In this document: positions 30,001-54,000 of the stretch, in pieces
Layout: the number at the start of each line of letters is the position of its first letter
How positions within the stretch are numbered: position 1 is the stretch's first letter
Origin: an uncultured Planctomycetales bacterium
Lineage (GTDB): Bacteria; Omnitrophota; Gorgyraeia; Zapsychrales; Fredricksoniimonadaceae
DNA: 64,000 bases
Reading direction: 5' to 3'
NCBI GenBank assembly: GCA_964583975.1
Contig: CAZOXU010000003.1
Location: 92,153 to 156,152 of the forward strand
Notes under the pieces: generated by a model
Database searches by the model: none
What the model was told of the DNA's origin: nothing
The model's input: the letters and a program-made list of their open reading frames with translations, nothing else
Made by a program: the position numbers and the translations under genes

Positions 30001-33000
30001 AAGACTGTCGCGGCTGTAGATCTTGTATTCTTCGTTGATATAGTGTTCCCAAACCACGCTGGTGTTGTAGTTATAGCCGATAATCACATCTGGGTTAACA
30101 ACTTCTCTGCCATCGCGATATTCATAGGTGACATTGTATAAATATTCAAATTTCTCACGATCTGGAGCGCGGTAAACTGTTTCGCGAAGTTTGCGTCCGC
30201 TCTTAAGATCGAAGGATGCCTCCCCTGCTGAAATACCTACAGGGATATGAAGATTATCAGTGTCACCGAATTTCATGAGTCGGATGGCGCCACGGTCAAT
30301 CTTCACATAATCACGGGCTAAAGGATCATCTTCTCCAAGGTATCGGGTCAACACATCTGGGGTACGTTGACCATTGATCATTACGGAACGTTTGATTTCA
30401 ACAAGTGTTGCTTGATTACCATAAGACAAGCCTCGAACAGCCTTCAGAGATGTTGTATCTTTGAACAATTCCTTAATTAAATCAGTGGTTGCAACTCTTC
30501 GAACAGTTTCTAATTCATACGCAAGGCCATTAGCAGAGTATTCAAAAGCAAGTTTAGGATCTTTTTGTCCATCCCATTTGGTATTAACAATTAAATCAGC
30601 AGCTGCAACATTGGTGGTATTGATAAAGGCGATGATACGAGCTAATGGATCTTCATTCATACGATAGAAGTATACGGTGCCGTCGTTGGTGTACTCTACG
30701 CGTGAACGTGTGAATGTGGCTTTAGTAATATCAGCGATACCGATCTCAGAAGCGATATTACGTATAGCTGTTTCAATATTTGTTTTAATTTGTTCTCCAT
30801 GGATACCCTTGACATTTTCAGAAATCAATTTCAAGATGGATTCTTGCAATTGAACACTGTTGAGTGTCTTGTTTTCGATATAGGCTCGAATAACATTTTC
30901 CAATTTAACGAAGTTGCCGTTTCTTAATTGATATAAGCTTGTGTCACGAGAAACTGGGCCAACTTCTTCGGTGATACGATTTTCAACTAAAGATAATCCA
31001 TTGTTTTCTGGTAAAGAATCGATTTGGCCAATGAGTTTCTGACGTTGCAAATCAATAATGAATGAACGAACAACTTTGCCTGCGACAATTTCTTGGGCAA
31101 TTCCAGCTTCAGCAACATTGTCTAATTTGATACTTAGCTCTGGTGCTCTTCTAGCCTCACCAACCGTAACTTCTCCCAAAGTGTAGATGCCATTGATATT
31201 CGTAAATTCGTACATTGGTCGGGTAATAGCATCAACGTATCCAACTAAGGCCTTACCCTTGCTTGGAGCACCATTAGCAAATTCTGTAGCAAAGAACTCT
31301 ACATAAACTTGACCAAAAGTGCTTCTGACTTCTTCGTTAGCACCAGCAACTGGTGCAACAATTGCAAAAGCTTTTTGATAAGCACCTGTCATATCACGAC
31401 GTTCAATAACTTGAACCGCTTTACCATCTATGGTGACTAATAAATTCTTAGCTGTTGCTGTTGCCACTTGAACATCAGGACCTGTAAACTTAGCAATGGT
31501 TTCTTCTGTAGTAGAAGTCACTGTGCCAATTTCAGCATCTTCTTTAGAAGGTGTCATGTAAATACGGCCAACTGTTTCTAATTTATACTTGGTTTCATCA
31601 TCTTGTTTATACTCAACTAGTCGCCCTTTAAGGGCCATGCTTTGGAGAGCTGCCTTACGGATAGCTTCATAGTTATCATTGATTTCTTTTAAGGTTGCAA
31701 ATTCAGCGGTCATATCAGCTTCAGTTTTGGCCTTATTGATAATCAAATAATTTTCATTAAGTTTGGCCTCAATTTCATTGCTGTTCCACAATTCAAATCT
31801 ACTGTTATAACGCTTAACCCATCGTCCAGCTGTTTGGGCAACTTCTTGACCTTCTTTATTGGTAATGGTCTTAATATCTAACTTAACGACTTCGCGAGCC
31901 TTGGTTAAAATGGTTCTGGTTATTTGTGGATCATTCATTTGATCAACTGCAATGAATTCAGCTGTTCCATCATTCCAAACAATCAAAGCATGCTTATCAT
32001 ATTTATTAACGATTTCAGTTTTCAACCATAATTCAAATCCACCTTGATACATCTTCACATATCGTCCTTTAGCCTCACCCTTCATATCTAAGCCTTGAAC
32101 TTCTTGGGCTTGGGTCATAATCAAATCTTGGTTAGCTTTAAGTTGGCTGACAGCCACAAACTCTGTGTTCTTATCTTTCCAAACGACTAAAGTATTGTTT
32201 TGCAAGAAAGCTTCAACTGTTGTTTCTACTTGAACACCATTGATGATCTTTGTAGGTCTAGCTTCTTTGAGAATTACCGTTCTCTTAACACCCTCTGGTT
32301 GACCTTCAACTTGAACCATTTGAGTTTGATTATCAGCCATACGTTTAACCAGTTCGCTTTCGCTATGTACACCTACTCTTACTTGTTCTGCGCTTGCTTC
32401 CCCTTTAGCATAGATTTCAATCTTGCCTGTAATTTGATTTTCTACTTCAATGCCACCGTTTAACAAGACGTTTAATTGAATCAATCGATTTTCTAATGTT
32501 TCAAGACCAGGCTCGAAGATAGCAACTACTTTTCCTTCTTCTACTTTAACCATGACATCAGATTTGAGATTCTTAATAGATGTACGCTGTGTACGAATAA
32601 CTGTATAAGTTGATCCTTCTTTGACTACGTTCGTAGCTTTCACAAACTTAATTGGATTGATACCTTGAAGATCTTCGGCAGCCACTGGCATACGGCCATC
32701 GATGTAGTAAATGACGCCTAAACCATCACGTCCTTGGGTTACTTGAGCTGTAAGTGCATCGCCAGCTAAGAAGATTTGACCATCTTCTGTGACCCAAGCT
32801 TTGCTGGTCACTGTGGTTTCTGTGACTGTGCCTGACACTGTTTCTGGGTTGGCAGCATGTTGAATAAAGTCTGCTAAGCTTGCAGGAATATGGTTGAAAT
32901 CGGTCTTAGGATACATACCTAAAGCCAACATGTTTGGTACTGGACGGCGATCACCAAAGATAGAGGTAATATTAAAGATGCTTTGATCAAATTCATTAGC

Positions 33001-36000
33001 AATGCGTCGGCCAGGATATCCTAATCCATCAATGAGTGTACCTCTACCTTCTTCAGTGATACCTAAGTAAGTGTCGTTTTGGGCTCTTGCAACTTGTGGT
33101 CCTAATCCTTGAGCTTTGTATTGGGCCGCTGTTCTGGTTATATACACCAATTTCAAATCTTGCATCGCTCCTGATTTAACCTCGGTCATCTTACCTGTGC
33201 GCGGATCGAATAATAATCCAATTCCTGTGTTGGCAATGGCATCGTAATTCTCACTGTAGAAGACATTTTGAGAATCGTTGTTAAAGGCATCACGCTGGAA
33301 TTGTTGTTCTTCACCCTTGAAGTAGATACGAGCAAATTTGCCGTTATGGATTAAACCAATTGGAGTCTCTTCATCGGTGACGCCATCATCATGAACACCA
33401 TTTGTTAATCGATCGTTCAATTGAATACCAGCTAAGGTGTACTCAAGCACTGGTCTTCTATAGTCATATTTATTTTCTTCGTCAGAAACTACTGGGATTT
33501 GCTTGGCATTGTGGAATTCAACGATCTCACCGGTGTAACGGTTACGGCTAACAGCGATGATTGTTCTACCTTGATCATCCTTGCCGCTTAACAATTGCTT
33601 TTCTTTGGCCATCATTTGGAGATACTTGGCATTGTTTTGCACCATGTAGGTCTTGCTAGTAAATTCTTGAACATTACCTTTAATGTCTTTTTGTGGAGCT
33701 CGTGGTGAAAGGAAGGCATATTCTAATGTCTTAGTCTTGATGTCATAGATGATACCTGCAGCAAAACCGCCTTGTTCTTTAGCTAATTCAAGATAGTTTT
33801 CAGCTTCACCTGAATGGAACATACCGGTCAACTTACGTAAGCTTTCAATATCCTGAGGTAAGGCATTTTCAAACACTACAAAAATTTTGTCTTTAGATCC
33901 ATAATAGGCGCTCTTAAAGAAACTCAATTCTCTGTTACCGAATCGGTAATCATATTCTGCTACAGGAACAATTGGTAATCGTTCGCCATCTACACCAAAT
34001 ACTAATCTGAATGGATAAGAAATGACTGATCCTAAGGTTTCAACAGCTCCTAAGCGGTAGGTATGGAGACTTTCGAATTCGTTTCGGTTATTAGCTCCGT
34101 AAACCTTCTTCACATCCAAGGTCAAGGTCTGAACTAATCCACCGAAGAAGTTACGTCTAGCATCAATTAACCAGCTTTGATCGCGAATGCTGTCTGTTCT
34201 TAAAGCATTGATTTCTTGTAAGCCTAGGTCGCTTACAAAGATGATGGCCATTGGAGTGTATTGGCTAATCAAGGCAGCTTGAATATCTGCTCCAAATGGC
34301 ATGGATGCCACAACATTCATACCCAATCCATTATTGTTCAACTTTTGGTTATAGATTGTTCCGAAAGCTTGGTAATAGTTATCTTGGATGACAGGATAAA
34401 CTGGTAAACCACGTTGACGGGATTGAGCATCTAGGGTGTCTTGTCTTTCCTTAGCTGCATCCACTGGCTTAGCCTTAGCAGCTTGTTCTTGTTGATCTTT
34501 TAATTTAGCTTCAGCTTCTCGGGTAGCCTTAATAGCATCTTCGGCCATCTTGGCTTGTTCTTGCTTCCAGGCTTGAGCTTTAGCCTCTTCTTTAGCTTTA
34601 TCAGCAGCTTCTTGGGCCTTGGTTGCTTTAATGTTCTCGATGGCTTCTTGGATCTTACGAATTTCATCTTCGATATTGTTTTCATTGGATACCGCTGGGG
34701 TCTGGATAACTTCCGAAGCAGCCTGTGCAGCAACAGTCTTATAGGTATAGACAGTGCTACGATTAGCATTGAAGAATTCTTGTACTCTTAATTTGCCTTC
34801 GGCAGTGAAGAATTGGGCTACTGGAGCATTGGAATTCAAGATAGCCACGCTCTTAGGTGTATCTTTTCCAACTGTCACCAAATGAAGGTTTCTGAACATT
34901 GCATCATATTCTTGCTTGGTGATGCCGTTGATTTGATCAACCACCATGACGACTGGAATGTAATCTGTATCATGTCGCAAGAGATCAACACTGATTCCTT
35001 GTGGAAGTCTTCGGCTGCTGGTTAAAGCAGTGTAGTCTGCACTTGTGACCTTATAGAAGCGGCCGTTGTGTTGGACATACAAGGCGTTTTGGATTCCCTC
35101 AATAATGCTAATCACATCGCCTGATAAAGCCACGCCTTGAGCCTTAGAAGCTTGGTAAGACTTTTGAGCGCGTTGTTTCACTTGAGCATCTACTGAAACT
35201 TTCGATGGATCTTGGGGCAGGGTTCCATCCACATATACAACTGCTTGGGGCAGGGTGATATTAGTTGAGGAGGCTTGAGCTATCTGTGCTGAAGCTTGGG
35301 CACTTAGAGGTATCAGGGTGGCTAAGAAGATCATTGAAGCGATCGAGATCTGCTTGATTGAGCGGCTGCCACGTTTCACTAAGGCCACTGCGTTTGTAAA
35401 TACGGCCATCACCTTCGATGAGGTAGATGTGGATCCTGTTTTGATGGTCACGAGCTGTTGCAATTTGAGACTTAAGGTGAGGAATACGAACAAAGTGCTT
35501 AATCCTAAGAGAATGGCTAACCATGTTGCACCTCCGTTTGTTTGCTTCTTGATTGATTGAAGTTTTTCCTGTGTGACTGTCGTACGAATAGCTTTTCCAT
35601 CACCAAGGTTGAGAGCAGTGGTGACAGAGTTGCGCTTAAGGGTTGCGCCTGAAGCATGGGTAATGTGTTGGGTATTTAAATTATGGGTGGACAGACGAGT
35701 TCCACTGCCATTTACAACTCTTGTAACAGCGGTGGTTTCAAACACTTTTTGCGCCTCTGATTTTTCACCTTGGTTTGGACTTGGAGTCTTAGAACCTTGG
35801 CGCTTGTCAGTTAACGCACGAATCTCATTGGTATTATTTATTATTCCGTTTACTGCACTTACATTATTTGACACACCTATAGAACTGGTGCGAGAGCGAT
35901 TATTGCTTAGACTTCTCGATACTGTATATTGAGCGTCTACGTCGCCACCCACACTACGGGCGCTTATACCTTCTTCGGCGCTTCTCAGACTTCCAGAAGC

Positions 36001-39000
36001 AGCTCCGATTGGGCTAGACACGCTATTTCCGACTTTAGCACTGCTTACTTCATTGGCATTGTTGCTGCCAACAGAACGGGTATTACCAGCTACAACTGCA
36101 TTGCTACTTGCACTACCTTCGCTTATAGGCTCAGCAACTTCCTGAGCTTGCTGCATACGACCTACTACTGTAACTACTTCACTGCTTACTTGACCTGCTT
36201 TACTGCTATTTACTGCTTCGTTTCTGGTGGACAGAGCTTGCGCTAAGCCACTAACTGCGATTTCGTTAGAAACTGTACTACTTTGCACATCTGCTACATT
36301 TGCAACAACTTCTGTACTCTTTCTCTCGTTTCCTACTACATCTGCCTGAGCGATTGAGAGAATCGCTGGCAGAATACTACGTCCCGGATGGTATAACTGC
36401 CACGCTGCTCCGTTGGCGATTAAGGTCTCCTTATCACTGAGATATCCACGGCTGGCTGCAACTAATCCAGCTTTAAATGTTCTTGGAGTTTCAGGCAACA
36501 CTAATATATGTGGTTGTGGAGGCGCAAATCCGCCGCCAGCAACTGTTGGAGCGCTAGAAGCACCTGGATTAGGCGTAGAGCCTGGCACAGGAGCTGGTGT
36601 GGGCCCTGGTGTCGAAGTTACATCAGCCGAAGGCTGACCAGCCTCTGGCTGGGAAGGTACGCTAGCTACTCCCACAGGCGCAGCTTCAGCCAAAGGCTGA
36701 CCAGCCACTGGCTGGGAAGGCATTGGAACTGGTCCAGGTGTTGGCGCAGGAGCCGGTGTTGGTGTAGGTACAGCGTTGGCACCCGGCACTGGACTCATCG
36801 GCAAAGGCATTGGTGCAGCAGGCAGAGGTGATACGCCGCCTGCATTAGGCATTGGCCCAGGCACTGGTGTAGGCGTTGGCATCGGACTGACGGGTGCTGG
36901 AGCTTGTGGCATAGCCGGCACAGGTGAGGTTGCCAATGGTACTGGTCTATCTCCTGGGTTATGGCCATCGTTATCGTCTTGATCTTTACTATTAGAGGTA
37001 GCTGCGCCAGGCATTAAATCCATTACTTGCTTACGGTCATTCTGAGGCGTAGCCGAAGAATCTCCTATTTGAGATCCTTCACTTCGTTCAGGATGACTAA
37101 TGATAACCTGTTGAGCTGAGAGCTTCTCGCCATTCATGCCAGCTAACAGACTAGCCCCCAAAAGTCCCATAGCCTTAGCTTGACCGCGAAGTCGCTGCAA
37201 CCAAGTAAGTTTCTTAGGAACAATCGTTTCTGATGAACTTGGGCTCAAATTAATTTGAGGTTTGCTGTTGAATCGATCAGCTATATTATGGAAGGTACTC
37301 TTAGCTGGCTTAAATTCTTTGATCGCAGAAGAAAGGAAGGCCATTGCAGAGCCAACAAATGGAGATTTAACATCACCGTTGTCTTGTAAAATCTTAGCCA
37401 ATAAATGAACCAAAAGACCCTTTTGAGCCGTTAATACGGTGGAGTTCTTGAATCTCTTAAGAATCACATCAGCCAGCTCTGAGGCTTTTTGTGGATCAGA
37501 TCCATAAACAGCCATGAAGGCTTCAACGTCTTTCTTAATGATACTGATGTCTTTAGCATCTAATCCAATGCCAAGAATCGTCAAAATTTGTTGTAGCCCT
37601 TCTACAACTTTAGCCGTGACTGGTACAAAATAGTTTCTAGCCTTTTCGATTAAATTCTTTTTGTTACCGGCAGTGGCACCTGTAAACTCTAAAGGAATTC
37701 CCGAGAACGCACTGCTTGCCAAGGCATTCATCAATTGCAACACAGCCTCTTCATAAGATTCTTGATTTCTTAAAACTTCTAAAGCGCCTTGTAACTTCAC
37801 ATCTTTAATGACCAATTCTTCACGGCCGTTGCTATCTTTTCTAAATCCAAAGCTCAACACAGCTTGTACGCCACTTGCAATCTCACCCAATGGACGAGTA
37901 AAGACCGTATGATCTGCGATGCTCGTGGTAATATCTTCATATTGATTGACGGGCTTCTTATCTTCATCTTTGGGCTGACGACTTAGCTCATCCTCATTTA
38001 AATTTCTATAAAGAGCCTTGATCTTGGTTAGATCAGCGCCATCAAGAATAGCTAAGAAGCTCTCAGAGGTTTCAGCAACGATAAGCTCATCAACTATCAC
38101 ATCGCCCTTGGCTATTGGTCCATTAGTCTCGATCACTCGTACGCTCTGGCCATTCTTGAGACGTCCTTGTTCATCGATTTCAATGACTCCTTCGACCTTA
38201 AGGACCATGCCATTAATTCTCGTTACAGGCAGAGGATAAATAAATTGATGACTACCAGGAGCCTGGGCCTCAGCACGTACATTTTTCTTTTCTATGGTAA
38301 TAACTAAAGCAATTGGCTTATTGGCTTTTTCAAAGGCACCAGAGGCAATAGCTTTATGTAGGACTTCTTTATCCTTAGTCGTATCAGCTTTATAAATCTT
38401 TCTTGAAGCAACAAACAAGACTTCGGAAGGATTAAGTGTAATGTCACCACCTTCAAGGGTAACTGTCTGTGGCTTATCGGAAGTATTTAAAGCAATTCTA
38501 GCCTTATTGTCTTTATCTCCATACATGGTGAGGACCTTAAGTCCCTCCACAGGAGCCTTGGATATCAAGATCATTTCTGGAGCAATACCGTCGACATACT
38601 TAGGCACATCGCTGCGTTGGATATTGGCATTAAGAGTATTCACCAAAGCTTTTAAAGACCAGGCATCTCTGAATGGCTTAAATTCTTCCTTGGATTGAAC
38701 TTTCTTGGCAAACTCAAACTTCAATTCCAAATCAAATGGTCCGCCAGAAATATCCTCTTCGATCTGTTGACGCAGAGATTGTTCCTTGATCAATGGAAGG
38801 ATATAACCTTGATAATAGGAGCGCATCACTTCTTTAGTTATGCCTATCAAGTGCTGGATTTCTTTTTCAACAGCAATAAATTCACCGTTGAGATTTTGAT
38901 GAGAACGAATACTCATCTCCATGGTCATCTCTTTAGAAATCTTTTGTAACAATTTCTTAGCAGCCCATGGCAGGCGATCATCAGCGATGATTCTGTCGTT

Positions 39001-42000
39001 GTAACGGCTAACAAAGTTTTGGAACATCTTGGCAATGACTTGGAAGAATTCTTGCTGATCGCCGCGCGTGGTGTTTTCCTTGGCTTCTTGCATGAAGCTT
39101 GTCACACTCTGTGGCTCGCTGTTCATGACCACGATATTGCGGAAGATTTGTTCATCGTAAGCGACCTTGCCATTAGCTTGGGTTACCCCTCGAGAACGTA
39201 CTAAACCTTGGTTAATATCATCTGAGCTGGTACGCCTATCAACAAACAAGAACATCTCATCTTGGAACAAGGTTGGAATGGTCTGCCCACGTGAAGAACC
39301 TAACGGTAATAAAACAAAGAAGTCTCGTGCGCCTGATTCAATAAGTTCGTCAACTGATTCTTTAGTAAGAATTTCTTTTGTATCATCTGTCTTATATAAC
39401 ACCCATTCGCCCGTGCTTTCTTGATAGAGCACTGACATATTTCTGCTCTTGGCTACATCCAAGGCTGTGGTTAAGACCATCAAATTATTAGAGGTGTTGA
39501 TGCCTGTGTTGCCATCACGCAACAAGTTAAACATAAAGGCGCGTCCACCATTGGCCTTAGCATCCAAATAAGCATTCATGCGAGCTGCTAATTGTCGTCG
39601 GTAAGCCTCGGTGAATGTTTCGCTGCCTGTGCTTGCAACCTTGCCGTCAAAGGCAACTTCTTTGACATCCATAGAGAATGGCGAACTATTTGTATTTGCA
39701 CTTGGGCTCTCAGCAGGACCAATATATTCCATGCCAAATAACACCTTGGCTAATCTCTTCATATATTCATTAAGCGTTCCAGAAGCCCAGATGACCTGGC
39801 CTTGTTGCATGAACAGACTATCGACATCGAAAGAATCGACGAAGGTGGCATTCTTGCCTTGACCGGATTGGCCGGTGATATTGTCTACCTCAACTCCTGC
39901 GTTTTGGGCCATTAACTTAGCAGCCAAGACGTTGGCCAAACGTTGTAATGGATCGCTGACAACTACGTCATTGTGTCCAATACCTTTTGAATCCATAAGC
40001 ACGGCTTTTTTACCACTTAAAACTAAATCTAAATTACCTTTGCGCATATTAGCAACAGCATTGATAAAGGCATGGGCTGCTGCAATCTTGGCATCGCCAC
40101 CTTCCTGACCACGTAATTCTTCGACGTTAGCGGCATTGTTGCTGGATAATACTTGTTGGACACCTTCTAAGGCTCGAGCCACTTCAACCACAACTTTTTG
40201 AGTCTCGCCATTTTCACCTTCTTCATCAAATTCTTGGACAGATTGAATCTGTTCGATATATCCGGCTAATTGGTCTTGAGCTTCAGCGATTAAACCTTTG
40301 GCTTGTTCATCAAGATTGGTTTCTGTACCTTGTTGGTCAGGGATTTGCAGACCTAAAGATTCCATCCATTCACCACGATAGAGGATATTGCCTGGGCCGC
40401 TTAAAATGTCGACAATCTTCTTGGCTTGGGCATTACCTTTTCTAGATAAACCAATCAGATGCTCTAGGTGTTTCTCAGTGATAAGAACAACTCTATTATT
40501 TTGTACGGTTTCAAGAATGTCTTGGAAGCCGTCTGATTCTTCAAGCTTACCAACACTAATGTCTTGGGCTTGTTGTTCGCTTAAAGCAGGTAAGACCTTG
40601 CTGGTGATTTCGTCATAGCTAGTTTGCAACTGACCGTCACCTGGTTCGACAGAGATCAATTTGGCTCGTCCACGGGTATCACGCAATTGCATGGCCATGG
40701 CAATGACTGCAAAGGTACTTTTTCCAGCACCCATGAAGGCCTTATAAAGGAAGCCCTTACGATCTGATGCTATAGCCTCTTGCAGGGTTGGGAAGAATTC
40801 GGCAAATTGCTGACGATAAAACGCCATTGGGTCGATGTTCTTATCAGGATTAACTTTAATATCAACACCGTTTTGTTGAGCCCAAGCTTGTTGAATATCA
40901 CGTAAATAATTATCTGATGGTGTTGATGCCATGGCTCGATCAGCGCCAGCAGTGGCTAAGCCAGCGTATGGATAGTCTTCACCCATCTTCGCTTCATCTG
41001 TGCCGTAGACATCATTAGCGATCGCGCGTTGGACCTTAGCTGTTTGTTGCTCAGGTTTAATACCTCGAGCCAAGCGATTGCCTTCACTCATAACTGCTGA
41101 AAAATGCATTGGAACAACCGGTAAAGGCATATTGGGCTTAAGCACGCCAGGTACCATTGGGACCATTTCATCAAGAGTAGTGTCATCCTGATCATAGGTA
41201 TTGTCATTCTGAGGAACGCTTTTCAGTGACGAAGAATCTTCTTTGAGATCCTTCGCTCCGCTCAGGATGACATTGACCTTGGCTTGATCACCCTCAAAGA
41301 CAACCTCTAAGATCTGCTTGAGTACCTTGGTACGATCAGCGTCCTTACGTACATCTTCAGGAAGCTCGGCAACGGCTAAGGCAATCTCATCGGAAGAAAG
41401 ACCATCGACCAACTGCATGAGAGCGCCTCGGTGTTCTTCTAACATGGTCGCGACATCTTCCTTAGAATATAATTCCTCGCCACCTAAGCCAACCTGCATT
41501 TGAGTGACTAAAACTGGATCGGTATCTAACATTGGGAATGTTCGAGTTTCGATAAACCATCTAAAGGCATCCAGGGCAGCCAGATCGCCCTTCTTGATCT
41601 TGCTTATCTTAAATTGGACCCATTCAATCTGATCGGCGCGTTGAGCATTATCAGCCGAAACCTTGGTTGAAGAACCTACATTAGAACTGAATCTTTGAGC
41701 GTTTCTAAATAACGGAGCTAATTGAGCAAAGTCATTTTGGACATGCTGACGAACTTGGACTGAAGTCTTGGCCAGCTGAGCAAAATCCATAGGCTTAGCT
41801 GCTTTGATTGATTTAATAGCTAAAGGTATATATGCGCTTGGGCTTGGGAATAGAGGTTTCGTTGATATTTTTATACTTGGTTTTTTGGGTTTAAGAGCTT
41901 CAGGGATGACAATCTTGCCCTTAATAGCTGCCTCGGCTAAAGCTTTCTTTTTCTCTCGGGCTTCCTTTTTATGGATCTGGGCTAAACGCATTAAGGCTGC

Positions 42001-45000
42001 GGCTAAAAGAATGCTCAATCCTTTGATCTGATCGCTTGAAAGTTGTAATTTCTTAACTTGTGGGACATTAGGTGTTGGTGTCTCGGGCAGTGCTGTTACA
42101 ACTGGAGATGCTTGAACAGCAGGAGCATTAACTACCTTGTCATCCGACAAATTAGCAGTCTGATTTGAAAGTTTTGAAGCTTCACGAGCGACTTCTGGCA
42201 CTGTCTTAATCTTTAACTCTGTACCTTTATCTACTAAGGCAATAAACTTTTCTGTTCTTTCTTGGGCTTCTTTAGCTCCAAAGATCACTGTCGCTCTAGA
42301 ATAAATATGTTGATACAATTTGTTCTTTTCAGCTGGTGTTAATGGTTCTCCAGAAATTAACTTTGCATTCCATGTGGCTCTGGAACCTACCTGCTTGGCA
42401 TATTTATAACTCTTTAAAATATCTGCAGCTTCAGAGGTTTTGCCTTGATTGATAGCATCTTTAAACCTGGTTAACTTTTTAGCTCTACCTTCACCCATGT
42501 TGTAGACCAAATCGCTAAGGGCTATTTTTTGAGCTGGTGTAAGAGTAGAAATGGCTTTAGGATCCCACACACGTACTTCGTGAGGAGAACTATCTTCCAA
42601 TCGATCAGTGATAATTTCTTCGCCCTGTGAAACAAGCATGGGGATGCCTTCTTTAGAATACTGAGGAATCAATTTTCCGGTAAATCCAAAGCCTACAGTC
42701 CATACGCCTGTGGTGCCATCATCATTGCGTCCAACCTTATCCAAATACATCAAGGCCCTCCATCCTTCATGGATTTCAGTCCAGGTCCTTAAATTAAATA
42801 ACGTGTCCTCGTCGATGGCAAACTGTGGAGTCGCGATCTTGGTTTCAATGCTAGCTTGGGTCTGTGGCTTTTCTTGGGCTGCAAGTTGACTGCCAAATCC
42901 AAAACCACCCACACTGATAGCTAAGGCCGTCATCCAGCCCTTCAAGCGTGGCGCGCTCATGGCGGCGTCGGTCACTTGATATTGAGTTTGAGGAACTTTA
43001 AGCTCTTTAACATTGCTGGTTGGATTTACAGCAAAGCTGCTCACATAAGACCAGAACTCAGGTAAAACTTCTCCATTAGCATCATGAATATCATGGTCAT
43101 CTCTATAGAAGAAGATTAATTGACTCTTATTATCATCTCTTAAACCATACAGGAATTTTCCATTAGGCATTCGAAGAACCCTTACCTTTGCACCTGTGGT
43201 TCTCTTACCGTTAACAGCAGAAAATTCTTTTGTTGGTTTGACCAATAATTGATTAATTGCTTTAATAAATTCTTGTTTATCCTTTTGAATAGCAGATACG
43301 TGTTTCTGATCATCCCCGTAAGCCCACACCGTGTAATTCTTGCCCGATTCATTTTGAACAGTTAGAGGCTTTTCAACGATTACCTTTGAAACCCTTTGTT
43401 TTAAAGTGTCAATAAGAACAGCCTCAGAGTTTTGCAAGTTATCTTCAGGCACGGCACCACCAATAAGACCTAATATATGCCCTGCATAAACCTGACGATC
43501 AAAATCGGCAGAAATTCCTGTTAAGGTTTCGACTAACTCATCCACTGTATTTTGAACACTCACATCGACAGGTTGATTTGGATTCTTTCCTAATTTTTCT
43601 CTCAAAATATTCAATACATCTTTTTCGCTGATCAATGCATCTTCCAAATCAATAGCTGCATGAATAATATCTTCTAAGAGAACATCGTTATGTCCACGCA
43701 AGGCAACCTTCTGCTGGATCTCTTTAGGAGCTACATTTAATAACAATGGCTGAACGCTATAGTTCCAAATCTTTTCAACCAAATCTCGCTGAGCTTTTTG
43801 TCGAAGTCTTGGCTCTTTGATCGATGAGAAATATTTCTGACCGTCAATATTATCTGCAATGCGTTCAATGGTAGGAGTTCTCTTAGCTTTTAATAAACCA
43901 AAGAATGAGGTTAGAACATCTTTTTCAATGGCTTGCCATTGAACATTTGGATTCTCTACGATTGCCTCAGTGAAATTCTCTTGTGTTTGAGAATCGGCAA
44001 AGGCTTGAGCACGGAAATCGACTAGTTTTGCAAAATATCCAGCATCTTTTAATTTAATGAAATCAGTTTGTACCGCTGCCAATTGAAGGGTCGGAAGTTG
44101 AGTCAGAGATTTAGCGCTATCGATGGTTGTCTTCAATTTGGCGAAACTGTTTTGTTTCTCTTGGGCAAAACGAATCTGTTCGGATATTAGTCTGTTTAAA
44201 GCAGTTATATCTTCATATTTATCATTTCTATGGAGACTGTTGCCTTCGGCATGCAACAGCCTTAATTGTCGGATAACGTCCTCAAGTGTCTTTGTCTGTT
44301 TAGGATCTCTGATGCTTCTATAGATAGATTGAATGGTTTCTGGTACTTTTCCATCCAGAGCCGTAAATTCTTTTCGAGGAATATCGAATGTATAGCCTTC
44401 AATGGATCTTCTTGTACTCATCGCAGCATCGGTCTTTGCTGTCATAGCAGGATCAGATAAACCTAATTCTATATTGCTAAGGTCTTTAGCTAAATCTTTA
44501 ATATCGTTTTGAACATATCCATAACGACCTAAGCCACTTTTCTCCCATGGTAAGCCAGCTGGAGTTGAAAGACCTGTTGGACTCTCAAACAATGAACCGG
44601 CCACATTGGCTTCATCTTTAAATTTATTCCAATTAGAATCGTTGGCATTTAAAACTTGTTCGATGTCTTGGGCAGACAAAGATGTAAGACGGGTCATTTC
44701 TTCAATGCTCATTTGAGAAGGCTCAAGCCCAACAGCCACACGCATCAAAGCCTTATACGCTTGAACATTATCGATCTTGTCTCGATTCTCAGGCTTCAAT
44801 TCACGAACAGCTTGATCTTTAGCAACTTGAATAAAACCTTTAACTAAATTCTGCACTTGAACTGCGCGCTTAGGAGTGGAGGACATGGCATAATCAAGTT
44901 GGGTTTCATCAAAATTAGCAAGATTACTTAAGAATGGTGTAACGATGTTTTCTCTAATGAAATTTTCTTTTCCTATTTGTGTATTCTTATAGGTTGTAAT

Positions 45001-48000
45001 CAGTCCTGTTGAATAACGGAAAATGTCATAAGCTAAATCTTCCACCGATTTATTTTGAACATACTCTCTAACATCTTTGAAGAATTCTAGCGCTTTATCT
45101 CGTCCTAAGGTTTTAGCAATCGTTTCAAAGATAAACCGATCTTGTTGATCTTTATATCCGTAAGCTAATATGACATTAGCCAAGAAGAAGAATTTACCTC
45201 TTTGAGCATACGTTTTAGCTTGATCTCCCTTATCCTTATAATAACCTGGCTCGAGGAAGAATCGTTTGTTGCCTAAATCAATAATGACAACATTACCTGT
45301 TTTTTCTTGATAAATAAAATTATCCAAATGGAAATCTGATGGAATTCTTCCCTTTAAAGCTTGCCCAACTTTAACCAAGGCTTCAACTGTCTTTCGACGG
45401 ATTTCGGTAGTAAGTTTTCCTTGTTTATTTAATTCGCTTAACTGAGGCCCTTTAATAAATTCTTCCAAATATAATATTTGTCCTTCGTCTGTTGTAAATG
45501 TTGGGCCTAAAGCTGGAGCAATCTCAGAATGTTTCTTACCAATCTTTTGCATATCACCAATTTCCATAGGATCAATGCTGCCCTTAGCTTTTGCGCTCTT
45601 ACTCACCAAGGCCACTTGGCGAGAACCGCCATCACGAGTTTCAAAGTCCACTAAGAACACATCTTTATTGCTTCCTGAAGCCAGATAGCTAATTGATATT
45701 TTCTTTGTTAAATCAGCAGCTTGAATATTTTCCCTTGTTAATTGGCTTAACATCTGGGCCACAACTTCATCCGTATTGTTTTTGTCTAACAAATAATTTT
45801 GTAGAATGGTTCCTGTATTAACAAATTGCTTAGTGAAGCTCTGTGCGTCTGCGGCTAAGGTTGGAAGATTCATCATGACACGACTTTCAATCTTCCAGGT
45901 ATCATGGACTGGACGTAAAGGTCCTGACATCGCAGCGTCGGATGGATTTGAATTAAATGTTGTTAGGAGGCTTGGCAATACTGCAGATGCATCTGGAGCG
46001 GATGTCCTTACACGAGGTGTAACAATTCCTGCAGCCTGTGGTGGTGATTGACCTCCAATGCCAAAGGCAACCTTTAAGGCATTTGTCAGTGCAACAGCGG
46101 CACTTCCAGTGTTTGCTGTTAAATTAGACGGCTCGACTTGATCTTGATCGATAATCATGGCACTATCAGAACCTTCATCTTTAGGTACGCTCGCTTGTTT
46201 TGCTGTTGCTTCTTGAATAATACTAAAAAATTGACCAATACTGACCTTGCTGACCTGAGCGACCTTGCCTGACTCTGTCACAACATTCTCAAAACCTAAT
46301 TTCTTAAGATTATCTTCTGTTCCATGGATGGTGAGGGTTTCTTCAATCGCATTATTATCATCAACACTACCAATTAACTCGACCTTATCTAATCCTAACT
46401 GGGCTAATCCTGGAACCTGATTGGAAACATCAGATTGATAATGACCCTCGCTAACGGCTATTACCTTTCCTCTTACAATGGCACGAACCTTGCCATTGGC
46501 ATCTTGAATCAACTTGGTCGTTGGATTTAACGTATACTTTTGTTCACTGATAAGTTCAGGAATGTTAACGCCTACAGGAATCGTAAATTCAACATGTCCT
46601 GGATTAATCTCTCCAGTTGCTGTCACATGATTAATTTGTTGGCCAGAAACGCTGACTTCTTTACCCTCATTATCTTGGCCACGAAGAAGATTAGAAATAT
46701 CTACGCTATAGCGGTCTTTTTCGACAGGAGTGATTTTATTGTTCACATAAATAGCAATGGGTCTGTCTGTTCTTACAATAACAGCATGTCCTTGTTCTTC
46801 GTTAATGATAAGTCTGTCTCCATCCAAAACTTCAAAGCTTCCAAGATTTTGTTTCTGGAACACTAATTGTTTTCCTATGATCCTTCCTGTTTTTACATCT
46901 AACGTAGTGACCTCTTTCAACAGAGCATTGATGGTTTTATCATCAACAGTTATTTTTCTTGGAGCATCTATGGCAATGTATGGCGCAGCTGGGTTAGAGT
47001 AATCAATTTTGTAGTTCTTGCCCTCCATGCGAATATCTGTTGGCGTGTGGCCTGTTGCAAAACTTTCGTCTTTAGCAAATATGAAGGCGTCGCTTGGAAT
47101 ATAATTGGAAAGCACTGGTGTAGATTCTTCTTCGATTTCTCGGCCTCGATTTTTAGAACGCACCTCTTTCTCAACTTCAGAAAATGTCTTTGTGCTAGCC
47201 AAAACATCTGTAAACAAGCCGCCCTCTTCTTTCGTGGTTTTGTAACTCTCAAAACCTTCCTTTAGCTTCAATAAATTGGCTTGAATTGTTCTTAACTCAG
47301 CTTCGTGTTCTCGAGCAAAAGAGACCATATTCGAATTGCCGCTCTTAGCAAGAAACGCAAAGACAACGTTCAAATCACTAAAATAAGCATCGAACTCCGT
47401 GTCTGCAAGATCTTGGTCAAAGACATCGTACTCTTTATGCATGGCTAATAAATCTCGAATGAATCTCTGCACCGGTTGAGACAAGCTTTCTCTATAAGTA
47501 CGAACGGTTCTAGGATAAGCTCCAGTGCCATCGCCTAAGAAAAATCCATGGATCGTTTCATGTCTTTCCATTTGCTGTTGGTGTTCATCTGAAGATAGTC
47601 TTTCAAGGGTTTTATCTTGTGGGATGACAATCACAGCTGCCTGACGAAGTTTGCTATAAACACGACCTTCTTTTTTAACAACCCCTCGCTGTTCTAATTC
47701 TTTAAGTAGGGCTTTTTCCCAAGGATTAAGGTTGTTCTCTCCCACGTTATTAACAAAATCAACGACCTTATCAATACTCCAATCATGTCCCACCTTAGGA
47801 CTTACGCCTACTCTAGCAAATGCCTCTTCATCCAAAACCTTACCCCTAAGGTCAGGATGTTCGGCAAAGACAGTCAAGCGTTGACCAAAACGATCAGCAG
47901 TAGCCATGTTAGCTGTTTTGATTTTTATAGTGTTATCTTGTTCGCTAACGCTGAATGATCTAGGATTCTCTGGTGGCAACAACTTACGCATTTGAGCGAC

Positions 48001-51000
48001 CTTACGTTCAAAAGTCGTATGAGCATCTAATTTCGCAAATTGGCTGTTGAGGGTTTTAATGGTTTGACGCTGTTCGTTAAGCAAATCTTGAGCAATTTTA
48101 AGATCAGCTTGATGCTGTTGAATTGGATTTAAACCATAATTTTTCTTAGCATTGCCCAACCATTTTAGGGCGCTTTGAAGATCACTGTTGGCAGCGACCA
48201 TTTTCTTTTGGAGTACCTGACGTTGGGTCAAGACCTGTAATATCTCTTGGGCTTTACTTAAGCTCTCTGTAGCAGGAAATCCAAGTTCAGCAATTAACTT
48301 AGATAAATCCTCTGTCATTCCTTCTTGTTGTTGTGGATCAACGCTTAAGAATCGAGAAGATAAATCTACAATATTATCTGCGACCGTATAACCTGTAGGG
48401 CTATTTTGCATCAACACTCTGTCGTTAATAGCTAAATGTCCGATTAATTGTCGTGCAATTTCTACTACTTCTTTGGAAGGTTGATCAATGCGTTGTGTCT
48501 TACCTATAAAGGCTTGGCGAGTGCGAGCGACAAGATTAGAAGCCATTTGTAAGTCTTCTTGATCGCTTCCTTGTTTCCCTGTGTTCAGGCGAGCTTCTTT
48601 GCGCAAACTAGCTAAAATTCTTAACAACTCATCCGGTGGAGCCTGCGATGGTGTTAATTCAATCATCTTTTGCACAACCTTCTGAATTGTGTCTGCACCT
48701 GCATTGTACATTTCAGGTTTAAGAGCATCGGCTACTAATTTAGGAATGATTGTATCGGTAGACACTTTGAATGTTTGCAAATGATATTCTTGCGCCCCTT
48801 TGAGTTCAGCTTTCTTATTACCTACAGCTTGGAAACCTAAGGTCTTATACAAATCTTTAGCCGTTTGATCTTCATCAGGAGCTTGTAAAACAATGTTCTT
48901 AAACTCAAATTTCTTGGCTTGGCTTGAAATAATGTTCATTAATAATGCTCCCAAATCTACACCCTGTACTGCTTGGCCAATACCTACATGAGAAATTTGA
49001 ATATCTCCGTTAGCTTGAGGTCGAGCGCTCACGTAAGCGAGTACCTTACCTTGAGCATCGATAACAGCATGTGTCAAAGAAGGAGTTTTCTTGATCAGAT
49101 CTTCGGAAGCTTGTCGGCTAACAGCTTGACCATTGACCTTATTCTCTAGACTTGCAATACCTTCAATGGCGTTATCATCCTTAGAATTAACTAATTTAAC
49201 TCTCATCCCCTCTGGCAGGGTAGCATTGATATTTTGTAGCTGTTCACTCCAAGAGCGTCCTTGATAGGCCATCATCATTTGTGGACTTGCTGCCCATTGT
49301 TGATATTGAGACTTTTGGGTTTTTTCTTCGATTCTTCCATCATCAAAGTAGGCAATCTTGACATGGTCTTCGACCGTACTTCTGACCTTGGCATAAACTT
49401 TAAATGCTTGAGAAATCTCTGTTGGCTTCTTCAATTCCCATGTCTTGGCTTGATCATTCCACTTCAAAGATCCTGGATTGGTATTGGAGTTAATGACAAT
49501 TTCATTGTCTCGAATGGTAATGCCTTGGGCTGCTCCTAAGATATTAACAACCCCAGCAAACTCACTGTCAGCCACATCTTCTCCTGCCTTTAAATGATCA
49601 GCAAAGTGATCTGCGGCTTTCCAAGCTGTTTCACTAAATGGAGCATTTTTAACAACCAGGCTTAACAAGGTTGTACGGCGGGCTAAGCTTTCTGACACGA
49701 TTTGTGATTCTTGAAGTGTTTTAGTAAGCCACTTCTTTATTTCAGCGTCTTTCTTAACAGCAATGTCTTCTGGAACATGGTGTTCAAATGAACTCTTTTC
49801 ATCACCAGCAGCGATGGTAAATTGAACCTTACTGACCTTACCGTCTTTGTCTCGGACCAATTTAAAATCATCATTATTTATGATCTTGGCACCGGCCGCA
49901 AAGTTAAAGCTGGCTCGCTGGGCAAAATCAATCATACGATCTGTCATATCAGAAATGGCTGAAGCTTGACGACCTGCTTCTTTCGTATCTCCGCTGTTAT
50001 AAGCCTCGATCATTAAATGTCGTTTGCCTTTAAAGACATACTCAGGAAGGGCCTTTTTCGCTTCTTTAAGGAAGGATCGGAATTTATCTCCCATGAGAGA
50101 ATCGATGTGTTCTGGTAATTTTGGCTCGCCTCGTTCATCGAAATCAGCACCATAGATTTCAAAATGATGGGCAATATTCTCTTCAACGGTATACTGCTCA
50201 TGGTAAATGTGCTCAGCCACGCTAGCTAATGGATTGGCAGCTAAATTATCGTTATGGATACGTACTTGGGCAAATTTACCAGCTGTCCCTTCACGGACAA
50301 GCTTCTTCATCCATTCGTGGACCAATTCATGGATGAACACACCAGATTCAGAAGCTTGAGAAACGCCGCGCAAGAACGAAAGACCGAGATTAGATCCTAA
50401 CAAGAAATGCTTGTCAGTTGACATAGCCGCAGTGCCCGCATCATCCAAAGCGAGATTCAAAACCAAGTCTTTGCCAAATTGCTTTTTAATAAAGTCGGTT
50501 TGTCGGCCAATTAAACTGTCTTTATCATCGCTAACAACCTTAATACCATAAGAAACAGCATCTTTAAGTGGAGCTTTAACATCTTCATTTGTAACTTCAT
50601 GGCCTCTATCTAACGCGACAATCGTGATCCTGGCTTTATCGTCTAAACGAGCCATGTTTCGGGCAACCTTTTGGACCGTATCAAAGCTTCCGCCAGCAAC
50701 TGCCACAGCTTCTTGGTAGGCATGTCGAGTATCTTCCATGTTCTCATGGTAGATCTTAAACCCTTCATTCATTCGCTGTTTCTGGATTAAAATTCGATCT
50801 GCTTGATCACTAATATGATCGCTGGTTAATCCCATGCTTTTAAATACCGACTTGATTGGATCATCCTTGCCAACAACGTAATGATCTCCTTCTTCAAAAT
50901 AAGCTGTATCGTTCCAGAATTTACCTATTCTAACACCATCTTTATCGACAAGCTCTCCATTAGCTATGTCGATACTGGTTACGCCCTTAGCTTTCAACTC

Positions 51001-54000
51001 TTCCGGAAGCCCATCTTTAATTCTTAACATACCGCGGTTATAGCTTCCTAATCTCATGCCATCTGTACCACGCTCTTCCACACCATGAATGCGGGCGGTA
51101 CGTAAGGTCAATCGTCCATCATTGTCCTTACTATAATAAGATACCTTGATTTCAGCTTTATCCTCGGCAATACCAGGATAATATTCCTGGGTACCTGAAA
51201 TGTTCTTAATGTCATAGACGCGTCCACCCACTACAGCAGCACCACGACCAACTACAGAGATGACTTTATTGCCTTTTTTCTCATCGATATATATAAAGAC
51301 TTTGTCTCCCTTTTTAAATCCACCGCCACTGGCCAAATGCAAGGTCGCTTCATTAGCTACTTCGCTTTCTTGGACTTCAACCTTACCGTCTTCCTTGATA
51401 CGCAATTTCAATTTCAAACGAAGATCTTCATGGCGCATATCTTCAGTTTCAATTTGTTCCGAAACGATGCTTGAAAAGGTGATGTTTTTCTTGTCGGCTA
51501 AGTCACTCAAATCATGTAACACACCTTCAAAGATCACCGCATTAATGTTTCCGTTATTATCTGTAAACGTGTTGTATTTATATCCTTGAATGGTTTTCTC
51601 TAATTTATCGCCAATCTTTCCTGGCATCACAACGCCATTCTTTAATACGCCAAGAATGTGATTCGTCATACCATTGGATTCATATTTATAAAGGTAGGCG
51701 ACAGTGTGGGCACCCTTGTATTGACCACGTGAGTCAATCACAGGCATTTGGGTGGTTACTTTAAGAGCATCTTCTCCGTTATACGCAACTTTTTCACCTC
51801 GTAACCAGGTGTTGACAACCAAAGGTGCATCAGGAATGCGAACTGGATTAAGCGCATGTCCCATGACCAAGGTAGTTACATAACTATCATTGATTTTTTC
51901 TTGTAAGACCTGATCGACCTGCTCTTGCTTGGTGCTGTCTACACGTAAGACACCAGTTAAGAAATCCTCGATCTTATCAGCTTTAAATACCTTGGCATTG
52001 CCTAAGATATGGTTTTCAACCATGAATTCGTTAGGCTTAAGGTAGGTGCTTCCATCCATACCTTGGATGCCTGAGCCTGTTGCTAATGCCACTGTCGCTA
52101 AACTGCGATACCCTTGTCCAGTAGTTCCTTGACCCGTAGTTTGTGCTCTGTAAATTTGATATCCTGCACCGTTGACTCCATAAAAGACCTTGGCATATCC
52201 ACTGTTATCTTTATAAGTATCGACCAACTTTCTCATAAAATCATCATTCATGTTCTCTAAATCTTTATTCATCACGTCGCGATTGATGTCTCGGGCAACA
52301 GAAACGCTTTGGACAAAAGACTGCATTCTTTCTTGATGCTCTAAGATATCCATCATCTGATTAACGGCTTCGCGCAATTGTTTTTCAGCCGTGGGCTTTT
52401 TCTCTGGAGAGTCTAAATCTTTTTGGATTGCCTTAAGTTGTTCTTTTTGAGCACTAGAGAGGCGTGAATCATGATAAACATCATCGATGTTAATCATTTG
52501 CTTATATTCATGAACCTTGGCACGATAGATCTGGGTCTTGCCGTCTTCTTTCACGTAATCTCCACGAGCCATGGCTTGTAAATAGGAATATGTTCCGCGC
52601 ATATTAAAATCGTAATGGGAGAATTCAATGTTTTCCTTGCTTGGGCTAACGCCTGAGTCACCCGCTGAAATAACTACAACCTTTTTACCCTTAAATACTT
52701 CACTGTTCAGAGTTTTTTCCATAATCGTAGCAAACTCTTCTGGTCCACCGGAGAGAACTATGACCTTGTCTTTAACATCGATCTCGCCGCTTTGTACTCT
52801 TTGAACTTCTTCGGGTTTTGAAAGAACAACAACCTTGTCTTCTCCAAAATGTTGTTTTAATAATTCTACAGTCTGAGTTCTGGAGCTTTCGGTAGCCATA
52901 TTTAACAACATGGCATTAACCATCTTTGGATTAAGCTCAACGGTTTCTCCTTTATCATTAGACCATTTGTAATTTTGATCATTGAAATTCCTGATCAATT
53001 CAAGAGCCTTAGCAGCATCCTTACCAGTAAACACTTCCAATAAAGATTTCTTAAACATTTCTGCGGTTAACGCTCTGTCATAATCAGCAGCCAGCTTAAC
53101 TCCTGCATGATCCAAGATGAATTTAGTGATTTCAGCTGTTCCGGTATATCCTGCAAAACCTTCAAACATACCCATCAATTCCATAGAAGTAATTTGAGTG
53201 TGTAAATTTCTTTCGGTGACACGGACAAACTCAGCTAAAGAAACTTTTTGATCTGGATGGCGTGCTTCTTGATGAGCCACAATCATTCTCATAAAGGCAT
53301 TTAAACCAGTTTGGTCGGTATACACACGGTTATAATCCTTAACACCATTTTTGCCACGTTCCACTGTCACCAGCTCTAATTTGCCGTCTTTAACACGAAC
53401 TTCGAATTTATCTTCTCGGATTTCATTACGAAGCACATCAGCGATGGCTGAGGTAAACTGATCCCAGTGAGCACTAAACAATTGATGGGCCTGAGCATCA
53501 GGTACACCTTGGTCAAAATTGTCTTTTAAGATTGATTCAATTAATTTTCCACCTTCTTTTACAGATTTGATAGCGATTAAATTGCCGTCCTTGTCCTTGA
53601 TGGCTTCAAAATAACGATCTCTGGCTAATGATGCGCCGTGCTGCCCATCTGCTTTCGTCAAATCACTGATGGCTCGTTTTCGATATTCCATGGCTATATC
53701 AGCATCATTCCGTCCTGTTGTTTCAAATGTCACCCCTTCAGCTTTTAATCCTTCAACTCTGGCGCTAATAAGTTTTTCTGTTTCTTTAGCAAATCGTTGT
53801 CCTTCAGCTTGTTCACGAGCTCTATTTTGACGGCCTGTTTCTCCCATGTTTAATAAGATATCTGTCTCAGACATATTTGAAGAGGTGATCATTGGTACAG
53901 AGAGGACCAATTCATGGATTTCGTCACCTAAAACAAGGTAGCCATCAAAAGGATTTTCAGGTTTCTCACCGCGATTTAAAGCTTCCTTATAACGTAAGCC

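Follow-up and report, generated by a model that had tools for sequence, protein, structure and literature searches.

What is a lysozyme of the T4 type doing inside a bacterial protein of at least 21,333 residues? The question is raised by a stretch of 64,000 nucleotides from an uncultured bacterium of the Omnitrophota lineage (GenBank assembly GCA_964583975.1, contig CAZOXU010000003.1, positions 92,153 to 156,152), referred to here as the window, which reads from one end to the other as a single frame on its minus strand. A preliminary description of the window, made from its letters alone, had placed a T4-lysozyme-like muramidase at 42330-42830, in the middle of a membrane protein of more than 21,000 residues, and had suggested a role in attacking or remodelling the envelope, as opposed to phage lysis. 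Taken by itself, the domain proves to be an ordinary though divergent member of glycoside hydrolase family 24 (GH24). It is the setting within the giant gene that is noteworthy, though not unprecedented. The frame that provides this setting is the following:

1..63999, minus strand: giant host gene of the lysozyme module, a single stop-free frame of 21,333 codons, open at both ends

Residues are numbered from 1 within this fragment, codon k occupying window positions 63999-3(k-1) down to 63997-3(k-1).

Identity of the Lysozyme Domain

The domain was assessed by profile searches, by alignment, by an AlphaFold2 model and by Foldseek comparisons. Two alignments were used, one of 35 sequences (the domain and 34 relatives), called A1 below, and a second of 40 relatives plus T4 lysozyme. 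The domain and the positions within it that bear on its identity are:

42310-42798, minus strand, residues 7068-7230: T4-lysozyme-type GH24 (Pfam PF00959) muramidase domain, by profile, alignment, AlphaFold2 and Foldseek
42766..42768, minus strand: codon of E7078, equivalent to T4 lysozyme Glu11 (general acid), by alignment with T4 lysozyme; invariant in A1
42739..42741, minus strand: codon of D7087, equivalent to T4 lysozyme Asp20, by alignment; A1 column at least 90% conserved
42697..42699, minus strand: codon of T7101 (within VWTVGFG), equivalent to T4 lysozyme Thr26, by alignment; invariant in A1
42709..42732, minus strand, residues 7090-7097: 8-residue insertion GRNDDGTT at the tip of the catalytic beta-hairpin, a gap in T4 lysozyme and most relatives
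42379..42501, minus strand: C-lobe signature from NMGE (7167-7170) to R7207, by alignment; G7169 and R7207 invariant in A1

The Pfam profile PF00959 matches residues 7077-7203 (window 42391-42771) with a score of 42.0 bits, compared to a gathering cut-off of 22.3 (E = 1.4e-10), and the match persists at 35.1 bits (2e-8) when the protein is scanned in chunks of 5000 residues. The region named in the preliminary description covers both this match and the fold (about 42310-42798). It had been given no strand; on the plus strand, numerous stops interrupt all three frames of 42330-42830, and the gene lies on the minus strand. The two sequence blocks that had been quoted as diagnostic of GH24 are indeed found in one minus-strand frame and in the order claimed. 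One of them, ALSDLVYNMGEGRAKKLTRF, is there to the letter, while the other, WTEIHEGWRALMYLDKVGRNDDGTTGVWTVGFGFTG, starts with W (WTEIHEGW) and not with the L that had been reported.

Other searches lead to the same family. The PHROG profile phrog_7 (endolysin) matches the domain at 5e-12, and a profile made from A1, when compared with the PDB, finds T4 lysozyme at 4e-37, across residues 3-160 of that enzyme. The best matches of the single sequence to the PDB (E from 0.014 to 0.03) include signal-anchor-release (SAR) endolysins. The AlphaFold2 model built with A1 has a mean per-residue confidence (pLDDT) of 86.1 and a predicted TM-score (pTM) of 0.80. When it was compared with the PDB by Foldseek, T4 lysozyme came at the top of the list (probability 1.0, E = 7e-7, target-normalised TM-score 0.74 over 164 columns), and a comparison with viral structures matched endolysins and the lysozymes of baseplate central spikes. 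The domain is thus predicted to carry the two-lobed alpha/beta fold of T4 lysozyme.

The preliminary description had pointed to the glutamate of HEGW as the catalytic residue, and the alignment bears this out: this residue, E7078, falls in the column of Glu11 of T4 lysozyme. D7087, spaced nine residues past the catalytic glutamate just as in T4 lysozyme, falls in that of Asp20, and T7101 in that of Thr26. The columns invariant in A1 are those of E7078, Y7085, T7101, G7103, G7105, G7169 (of the NMG motif) and R7207. NMGE corresponds to Q105-E108 of T4 lysozyme, and R7207 to Arg145, the partner of Glu11. That the Glu/Asp/Thr set has been kept along with the equivalent of Arg145 and the NMG motif speaks in favor of selection acting on catalysis. 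Judged by its sequence, then, the domain is an intact GH24 muramidase of the T4 lysozyme type, and from this I infer that it is catalytically active.

The insertion GRNDDGTT requires some care, since it contains two aspartates of its own. A pairwise alignment to the PDB offered D7093/D7094 as the catalytic Asp, a candidate that I rejected: the multiple alignment and the model place these two residues in the insertion and D7087 in the Asp20 column. In the model, strands at model residues 26-36 and 42-48 make a longer hairpin, with D7087 and T7101 remaining opposite. Insertions at the same site also occur in four relatives (P0023, P0031, P0064 and P0078).

How close are the relatives? Scanned exhaustively with HMMER, a set of 1.84 billion representatives yielded 105, all of them proteins with lysozyme domains. 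Even the strongest matches stop at E = 1.4e-9 and 32-41% identity, and the domain must therefore be considered a divergent member of its family. Its closest relatives are endolysins of phages and lysozymes of tails or virions, none more than 41% identical. Metagenome and viral contigs gave phage lysozymes at 27-29% identity and no other matches, and tblastn against cultured phages gave one weak match. A word-indexed search of a set of 5.8 billion proteins found nothing for the lysozyme region or for residues 14200-15400, and no related locus was found in GTDB genomes.

Two of the relatives are nearly identical proteins of 854-856 residues, encoded on a metagenome contig and a 210-kb IMG/VR contig (L002, 8024-10594, and L007, 8018-10582). 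Each has a C-terminal T4-type lysozyme that shares the exact sequence ADLVYNMGEG with the window domain, with an overall identity of 27%. They look like phage baseplate or tail spikes, a reading supported by the matches to baseplate central spikes among viral structures.

Embedding in the Giant Reading Frame

The lysozyme does lie mid-protein, as had been claimed: it occupies residues 7068-7230 of a frame of at least 21,333 codons, and the frame runs 14,000 further codons past the domain without a stop. The longest stop-free stretch in any of the other five frames of the window is 232 codons. A stop-free frame of 21,333 codons cannot, at 41% GC, be accidental. That the product is a membrane protein was also correctly seen. 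Taking as transmembrane (TM) any segment with a mean Kyte-Doolittle hydropathy of 1.6 over 19 residues, I found 44 strongly hydrophobic segments, about one per 480 residues, each at residue 9493 or later. These strong segments are confined to the C-terminal 55% of the fragment, and the first 9,490 residues have weak hydrophobic peaks alone. Pfam recognizes few domains in the 21,333 residues: tetratricopeptide (TPR) repeats, a GNAT domain, two segments resembling phosphomannose isomerase, and the lysozyme. The last is present in a single copy, and no second lysozyme or other domain that acts on or binds peptidoglycan was found by Pfam across the window protein.

There is little to set the module apart from the gene around it. 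No Shine-Dalgarno sequence precedes Met7014, the first residue of a signal-like segment upstream of the domain (considered in the next section). Within 41500-43600 there is no promoter-like site (no sigma-70-like sequence, where shuffles lead one to expect 4.3), and the minus strand, which is the coding one, has no terminator-like site. The synonymous-codon score of the module stands at the 51st percentile among windows of equal size taken from the gene, and its GC content is within one standard deviation of the gene's; together these rule out a recent horizontal insertion. A holin, a spanin or any other phage gene is not possible within the 64 kb, because the whole of the window is one reading frame.

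The module belongs, in frame, to the giant multi-pass membrane protein itself, whose length is at least 21,333 residues. It has the look of a phage-type lysozyme of the secreted or membrane-anchored kind that was domesticated long ago. As to the earlier suggestion that the domain attacks or remodels an envelope and does not serve phage lysis, its negative half fits the lack of any phage gene and of a nested promoter, Shine-Dalgarno sequence or terminator. Its positive half is reasonable, and is conditional on the arguments that follow.

Flanking Segments and Putative Topology

The segments on either side of the lysozyme, along with the nearest recognizable domain upstream, are:

42871..42960, minus strand, residues 7014-7043: MSAPRLKGWMTALAISVGGFGFGSQLAAQE, signal-peptide-like or signal-anchor-like segment, by sequence layout, hydropathy and relatives
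42049..42141, minus strand, residues 7287-7317: DKVVNAPAVQASPVVTALPETPTPNVPQVKK, extended linker rich in Pro, Thr and Val, C-terminal of the lysozyme domain, by sequence
41944..42024, minus strand: KGLSILLAAALMRLAQIH, short hydrophobic helix (7326-7343), then the basic cluster KKEAREKKK (7344-7352), by hydropathy and charge
48811-49128, minus strand, residues 4958-5063: GNAT acetyltransferase (Pfam Acetyltransf_10 1.1e-6, Acetyltransf_1 2.6e-6)

The upstream segment has the layout of a signal sequence: Met and a basic n-region, a hydrophobic core rich in Gly, Ala and Ser, and an L-A-A motif followed by Q. The core (7022-7041) has a Kyte-Doolittle peak of 1.24, above the protein's 95th percentile, and from the end of the signal-like segment to the catalytic glutamate there are 37 residues. 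A hydrophobic segment no more than 90 residues upstream of the catalytic glutamate is present in 12 of 94 relatives. The HMMER alignments to two relatives, P0025 (an anchored lysozyme of 208 residues) and P0007, run across the signal-like segment. On both grounds, an anchor plus a T4-type lysozyme may be regarded as an established module in this lysozyme family.

On the other side of the domain, the extended linker probably acts as a tether. The short helix that comes after it has a Kyte-Doolittle peak of 1.05, again above the gene's 95th hydropathy percentile, and the residues around it are asymmetric in charge, with six Lys or Arg in the 15 residues after the helix versus two in the 15 before, in agreement with the positive-inside rule. 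Helix and basic cluster might conceivably be a stop-transfer element, which would return the chain to the cytoplasm, and the upstream segment is a putative start-transfer element. The two flanks suggest that the lysozyme is displayed on an extracytoplasmic loop tethered to the membrane. The GNAT domain, about 2,000 residues upstream of the lysozyme and dependent on acetyl-CoA, is compatible with a cytoplasmic location of the N-terminal side, to which it lends a little weight.

A second possible cytoplasmic marker was sought downstream. About 650 residues past the lysozyme (window 40717-40740, minus strand, residues 7754-7761) is the only Walker-A-like motif, AFMGAGKS, and about 500 residues beyond that is the motif NQGLVRSRG; the pair is reminiscent of motifs I and VI of helicases. 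The idea of a helicase or SecA-DEAD domain at this place was nonetheless rejected, as Pfam and PDB sequence searches came back empty and the Walker-A motif is at chance level. AlphaFold2 run on the single sequence of the candidate region gave a pLDDT of 39, and residues 7650-8650 showed no significant BLASTP similarity to an approximate sequence of E. coli SecA.

Possible Functions

The reading that I favor, tentatively and with slightly less than even confidence, is that of a domesticated phage-type muramidase that locally opens or remodels the producer's own wall. The protein would be inserted into the membrane with segment 7014-7043 as start-transfer and helix 7326-7343 as stop-transfer element, leaving a lysozyme loop of about 285 residues, held at both ends, on the outer (periplasmic) face of the cytoplasmic membrane. 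There E7078, D7087 and T7101 would hydrolyse the beta-1,4 bond between N-acetylmuramic acid and N-acetylglucosamine (MurNAc-beta-1,4-GlcNAc) in peptidoglycan, and the space so made, or the wall so remodelled, would let a very large envelope protein or structure cross the wall or sit in it. Local remodelling is favored because tethers so short would bring the domain to the producer's own sacculus as its substrate. An analogous task is performed by the lysozymes of phage tails and by the lytic enzymes dedicated to flagella and secretion systems.

A number of points weigh against this reading. Both flanking hydrophobic segments are weak, with peaks of 1.24 and 1.05 compared to the TM threshold of 1.6, and helix 7326-7343 has about 14-16 apolar residues with one Arg inside. 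The gene runs off the window, so that the true N-terminus lies beyond it, and some 7,000 residues precede the module. The Walker-A motif is about as frequent as chance predicts (1 found, 1.6 +/- 1.3 expected) and cannot serve as a cytoplasmic marker. Searches of the 5.8-billion-protein index and of GTDB genomes returned no orthologue of the giant protein, and the literature on comparable giants favors attack on the wall of prey (West-Roberts et al. 2023, doi 10.1101/2023.11.21.568195).

Attack on the wall of a prey or host cell is the rival that survives best, although I consider it on the whole unlikely. GH24 would be the effector, and the giant protein, either whole or as a fragment split off from it, would reach the target cell and digest its peptidoglycan; the fragment could be released by a signal-peptidase cut after L-A-A7041, by the protein's own HExxH modules, or by both. 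Similar giant frames are found in predatory or episymbiotic Omnitrophota, and for these giant, TM-rich and domain-poor proteins binding and degradation of prey wall has been proposed, SLT lytic-transglycosylase domains being reported in some of them (doi 10.1101/2023.11.21.568195). Aravind and colleagues also read such giants as prey-breaching arrays (PMC12419801). The window protein itself has five zincin-like HExxH modules that could process it, and the nearest relatives of its lysozyme include phage tail and virion lysozymes, which act from outside the cell. But the domain sits between two membrane-proximal hydrophobic segments on short tethers, and an unprocessed protein could not cross the producer's outer layers. 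Pfam finds no secretion, adhesion or peptidoglycan-binding domain adjoining the lysozyme, the sole cultured predator of this kind attacks archaea, which have no murein, and the processing is wholly hypothetical.

A more improbable explanation is that an endolysin with its signal peptide was captured from a phage, fused in-frame into a fast-evolving giant gene, and now has little or no function, as a passenger that is either cytoplasmic and deprived of substrate or merely a peptidoglycan-binding module. The sequence that begins MSAPRLKGW does resemble the start of what was once a secreted protein in its own right, the hydrophobic segments on either side are weak, and the lysozyme occurs only once. 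Giant proteins of this sort are, according to published surveys, mosaic and for the most part unique in sequence. A passenger would not be expected, however, to have kept every invariant catalytic and structural residue over a time long enough for its codon usage to turn fully host-like, nor to fold confidently in the AlphaFold2 model, nor to lie in 64 kb devoid of stops and frameshifts.

Viral polyproteins are processed by signal peptidase along with proteases of their own, and one may imagine, as an analogy that I think a little less probable still, that the giant frame is a bacterial polyprotein. Internal signal-like segments, of which 7014-7043 is an example, and the five HExxH modules would cut it into many pieces, one of which would be a soluble, exported T4-type lysozyme that breaches the wall of a host or prey. 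Hardly credible is a separate nested gene, for instance of a prophage, in which lysozyme and signal peptide are translated from Met7014 and the long frame is a coincidental read-through: an in-frame ATG is indeed followed by a canonical signal-peptide-like sequence, but the start and termination signals sought above are missing, the frame has no stop for 14,000 codons past the domain, and codon usage equals that of the rest of the gene.

Why does the domain matter? Giant bacterial proteins are nearly free of recognizable domains, and each enzyme domain confidently assigned in one is an experimental handle. Among 21,333 residues the muramidase is the one catalytic domain assigned with high confidence, its putative active site is complete, and it can easily be assayed. 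Its position between two candidate membrane segments also makes it a topological landmark in a protein too large for standard predictors. Action on the producer's own wall, if true, would show how a huge envelope protein gets through the sacculus. Action on a prey wall, if that is what is true, would directly support the predation hypothesis of giant genes, with bacterial rather than archaeal targets.

Comparison with Known Systems

The product of T4 gene e is the natural standard. The window domain has in common with T4 lysozyme the fold, the positions of Glu, Asp and Thr, and the equivalent of the Glu11-Arg145 pair, at an identity of about 20% and with an 8-residue insertion in the catalytic hairpin. 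T4 lysozyme, however, is a free cytoplasmic endolysin of 164 residues released by holin, whereas the window domain lies inside a membrane protein no shorter than 21,333 residues, preceded by a signal-like segment and followed by a hydrophobic helix.

A second comparison is with the tail and virion lysozymes of phages (spikes of the T4 gp5 type and internal virion proteins), in which a lysozyme is likewise fused into a far larger structural protein. They open the wall locally for the passage of a large structure, the same mechanism that is favored for the window domain. Lysozymes of this type are among its nearest relatives: four proteins of 800-850 residues (P0002-P0004 and P0006) and the two putative spike proteins described above (L002 and L007, with DLVYNMGEG). 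These match the PHROGs "baseplate hub subunit and tail lysozyme" and "internal virion lysozyme motif". The differences are that identity is at most 41%, that the window domain has no phage context and no spike or OB-fold neighbour, and that its host protein is a multi-pass membrane protein at least 25 times longer.

The SAR endolysins (R21 of phage 21, 3HDE/3HDF; Lyz of P1; RrrD, 4ZPU) belong to PF00959 and have, before the catalytic domain, a weakly hydrophobic segment rich in Gly, Ala and Ser that carries the domain through the membrane via Sec. The candidate counterpart in the window is the Gly/Ala/Ser-rich segment at 7022-7041. Unlike theirs, it is internal rather than N-terminal and, with 37 residues to the glutamate, farther from the active site. 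It is also less hydrophobic, at 1.24 compared to about 2.1 for the SAR domain of R21, a value I computed from an approximate R21 sequence. In the window, moreover, a second hydrophobic segment follows the domain, and there is no holin, pinholin or spanin context in 64 kb.

A functional analogy is provided by FlgJ, VirB1 and EtgA, in which locally restricted cleavage of the wall is coupled to the assembly of a large envelope structure. Most enzymes of this sort belong to GH23 (lytic transglycosylases) or to GH73 (glucosaminidases), and they occur as separate proteins or in small fusions.

Finally, the window protein may be compared with the giant proteins of Omnitrophota, the "Archaeovorins" and others of at least 10,000 residues (treated also in PMC10066038). 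Like them, it has a giant single frame, many TM helices and few domains, and it shares with them a mosaic of enzymes (here GNAT, TPR, sugar-isomerase-like and metallopeptidase-like) and a lack of sequence relatives. With at least 21,333 residues it exceeds the length of 10,000 residues or more used by Nielsen and Lui; the length used by West-Roberts et al. is 30,000 residues or more, and the window holds only a 21,333-codon portion of the frame. Among proteins of at least 10,000 residues, 80% are singletons at 30% identity and 94% have TM helices or signal peptides (doi 10.64898/2026.06.07.730766). Most full-length giants are said to have a divergent SecA_DEAD domain. Other traits of the group (West-Roberts et al.; Nielsen and Lui) are a C39 or S8 peptidase near the N-terminus, and a content of glycosyltransferase, methyltransferase and NUDIX domains or of dockerin and TSP3. 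Pfam finds in the 21,333 residues of the window, beyond which the gene extends, no SecA_DEAD, C39, S8, dockerin/TSP3, glycosyltransferase, methyltransferase or NUDIX domain. With neither of the two hallmark domains, SecA_DEAD and C39, detected in the window, membership of the protein in the giant Omnitrophota class can be called no more than plausible.

The wall-active domain also differs, being GH24 in the window and SLT (GH23) in some of the giant Omnitrophota proteins. Giant proteins with domains that degrade the cell wall are thus already known in this phylum. The giant-protein literature searched makes no mention of a GH24 domain, and what is notable here is the position of GH24 and its signal-like and stop-transfer-like flanks.

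Other Features of the Giant Protein

The remaining features recognized in the protein are listed in order of residue number:

59965-63999, minus strand, residues 1-1345: diverged tandem repeat of about 270 residues, 5 copies, by self-comparison
56011-56433, minus strand, residues 2523-2663: TPR repeats (TPR_19, 5.6e-9), the sole repeat-scaffold domain recognized in the fragment
about 36430-36972, minus strand, residues about 9010-9190: PxP-type spacer about 180 residues long, extremely rich in Pro, Ala, Thr and Val, by composition
20140-20742, minus strand, residues 14420-14620: HExxH module, one of 5 copies of about 180 residues, by self-comparison
19936-20196, minus strand, residues 14602-14688: phosphomannose-isomerase type I-like (cupin) segment, weak (Pfam E = 5e-3)
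18505-19077, minus strand, residues 14975-15165: HExxH module
10450-11007, minus strand, residues 17665-17850: HExxH module
9820-10422, minus strand, residues 17860-18060: HExxH module
7570-8142, minus strand, residues 18620-18810: HExxH module
2542-2859, minus strand, residues 20381-20486: segment like the catalytic domain of phosphomannose isomerase type I (cupin), Pfam E = 4e-7

The HExxH modules are 22-39% identical to each other, and in all of them both the start, FP.N/QV, and the HExxH motif are invariant. The motif is found seven times in the giant protein, compared to 0.34 expected by chance. The modules match zincin families weakly in Pfam and NCBIfam, which suggests a zincin-like metalloprotease, and they could be proteases by which the giant protein processes itself.

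The four full copies of the 270-residue repeat that were aligned are 30-43% identical to one another, while copy 1, with which the fragment opens, has diverged further. The repeats have no Pfam match, and a profile made from them has no homologue in the 5.8-billion-protein index.

The PxP-type stretch is followed by a low-complexity region rich in Ser, Asn and Val, and both lie just ahead of the first strong TM helix (9493). From its composition, the stretch may be a spacer that spans the envelope.

The two cupin segments are paralogous, BLAST pairing residues 14624-14760 with 20412-20557, and the copy at 14602-14688 begins at the end of one of the HExxH modules. Cysteine is nearly missing from the giant protein, making up 4 of the 21,333 residues (0.02%), all of them past residue 14,700. 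Two of the four, C14767 and C14772, lie shortly downstream of that same cupin copy.

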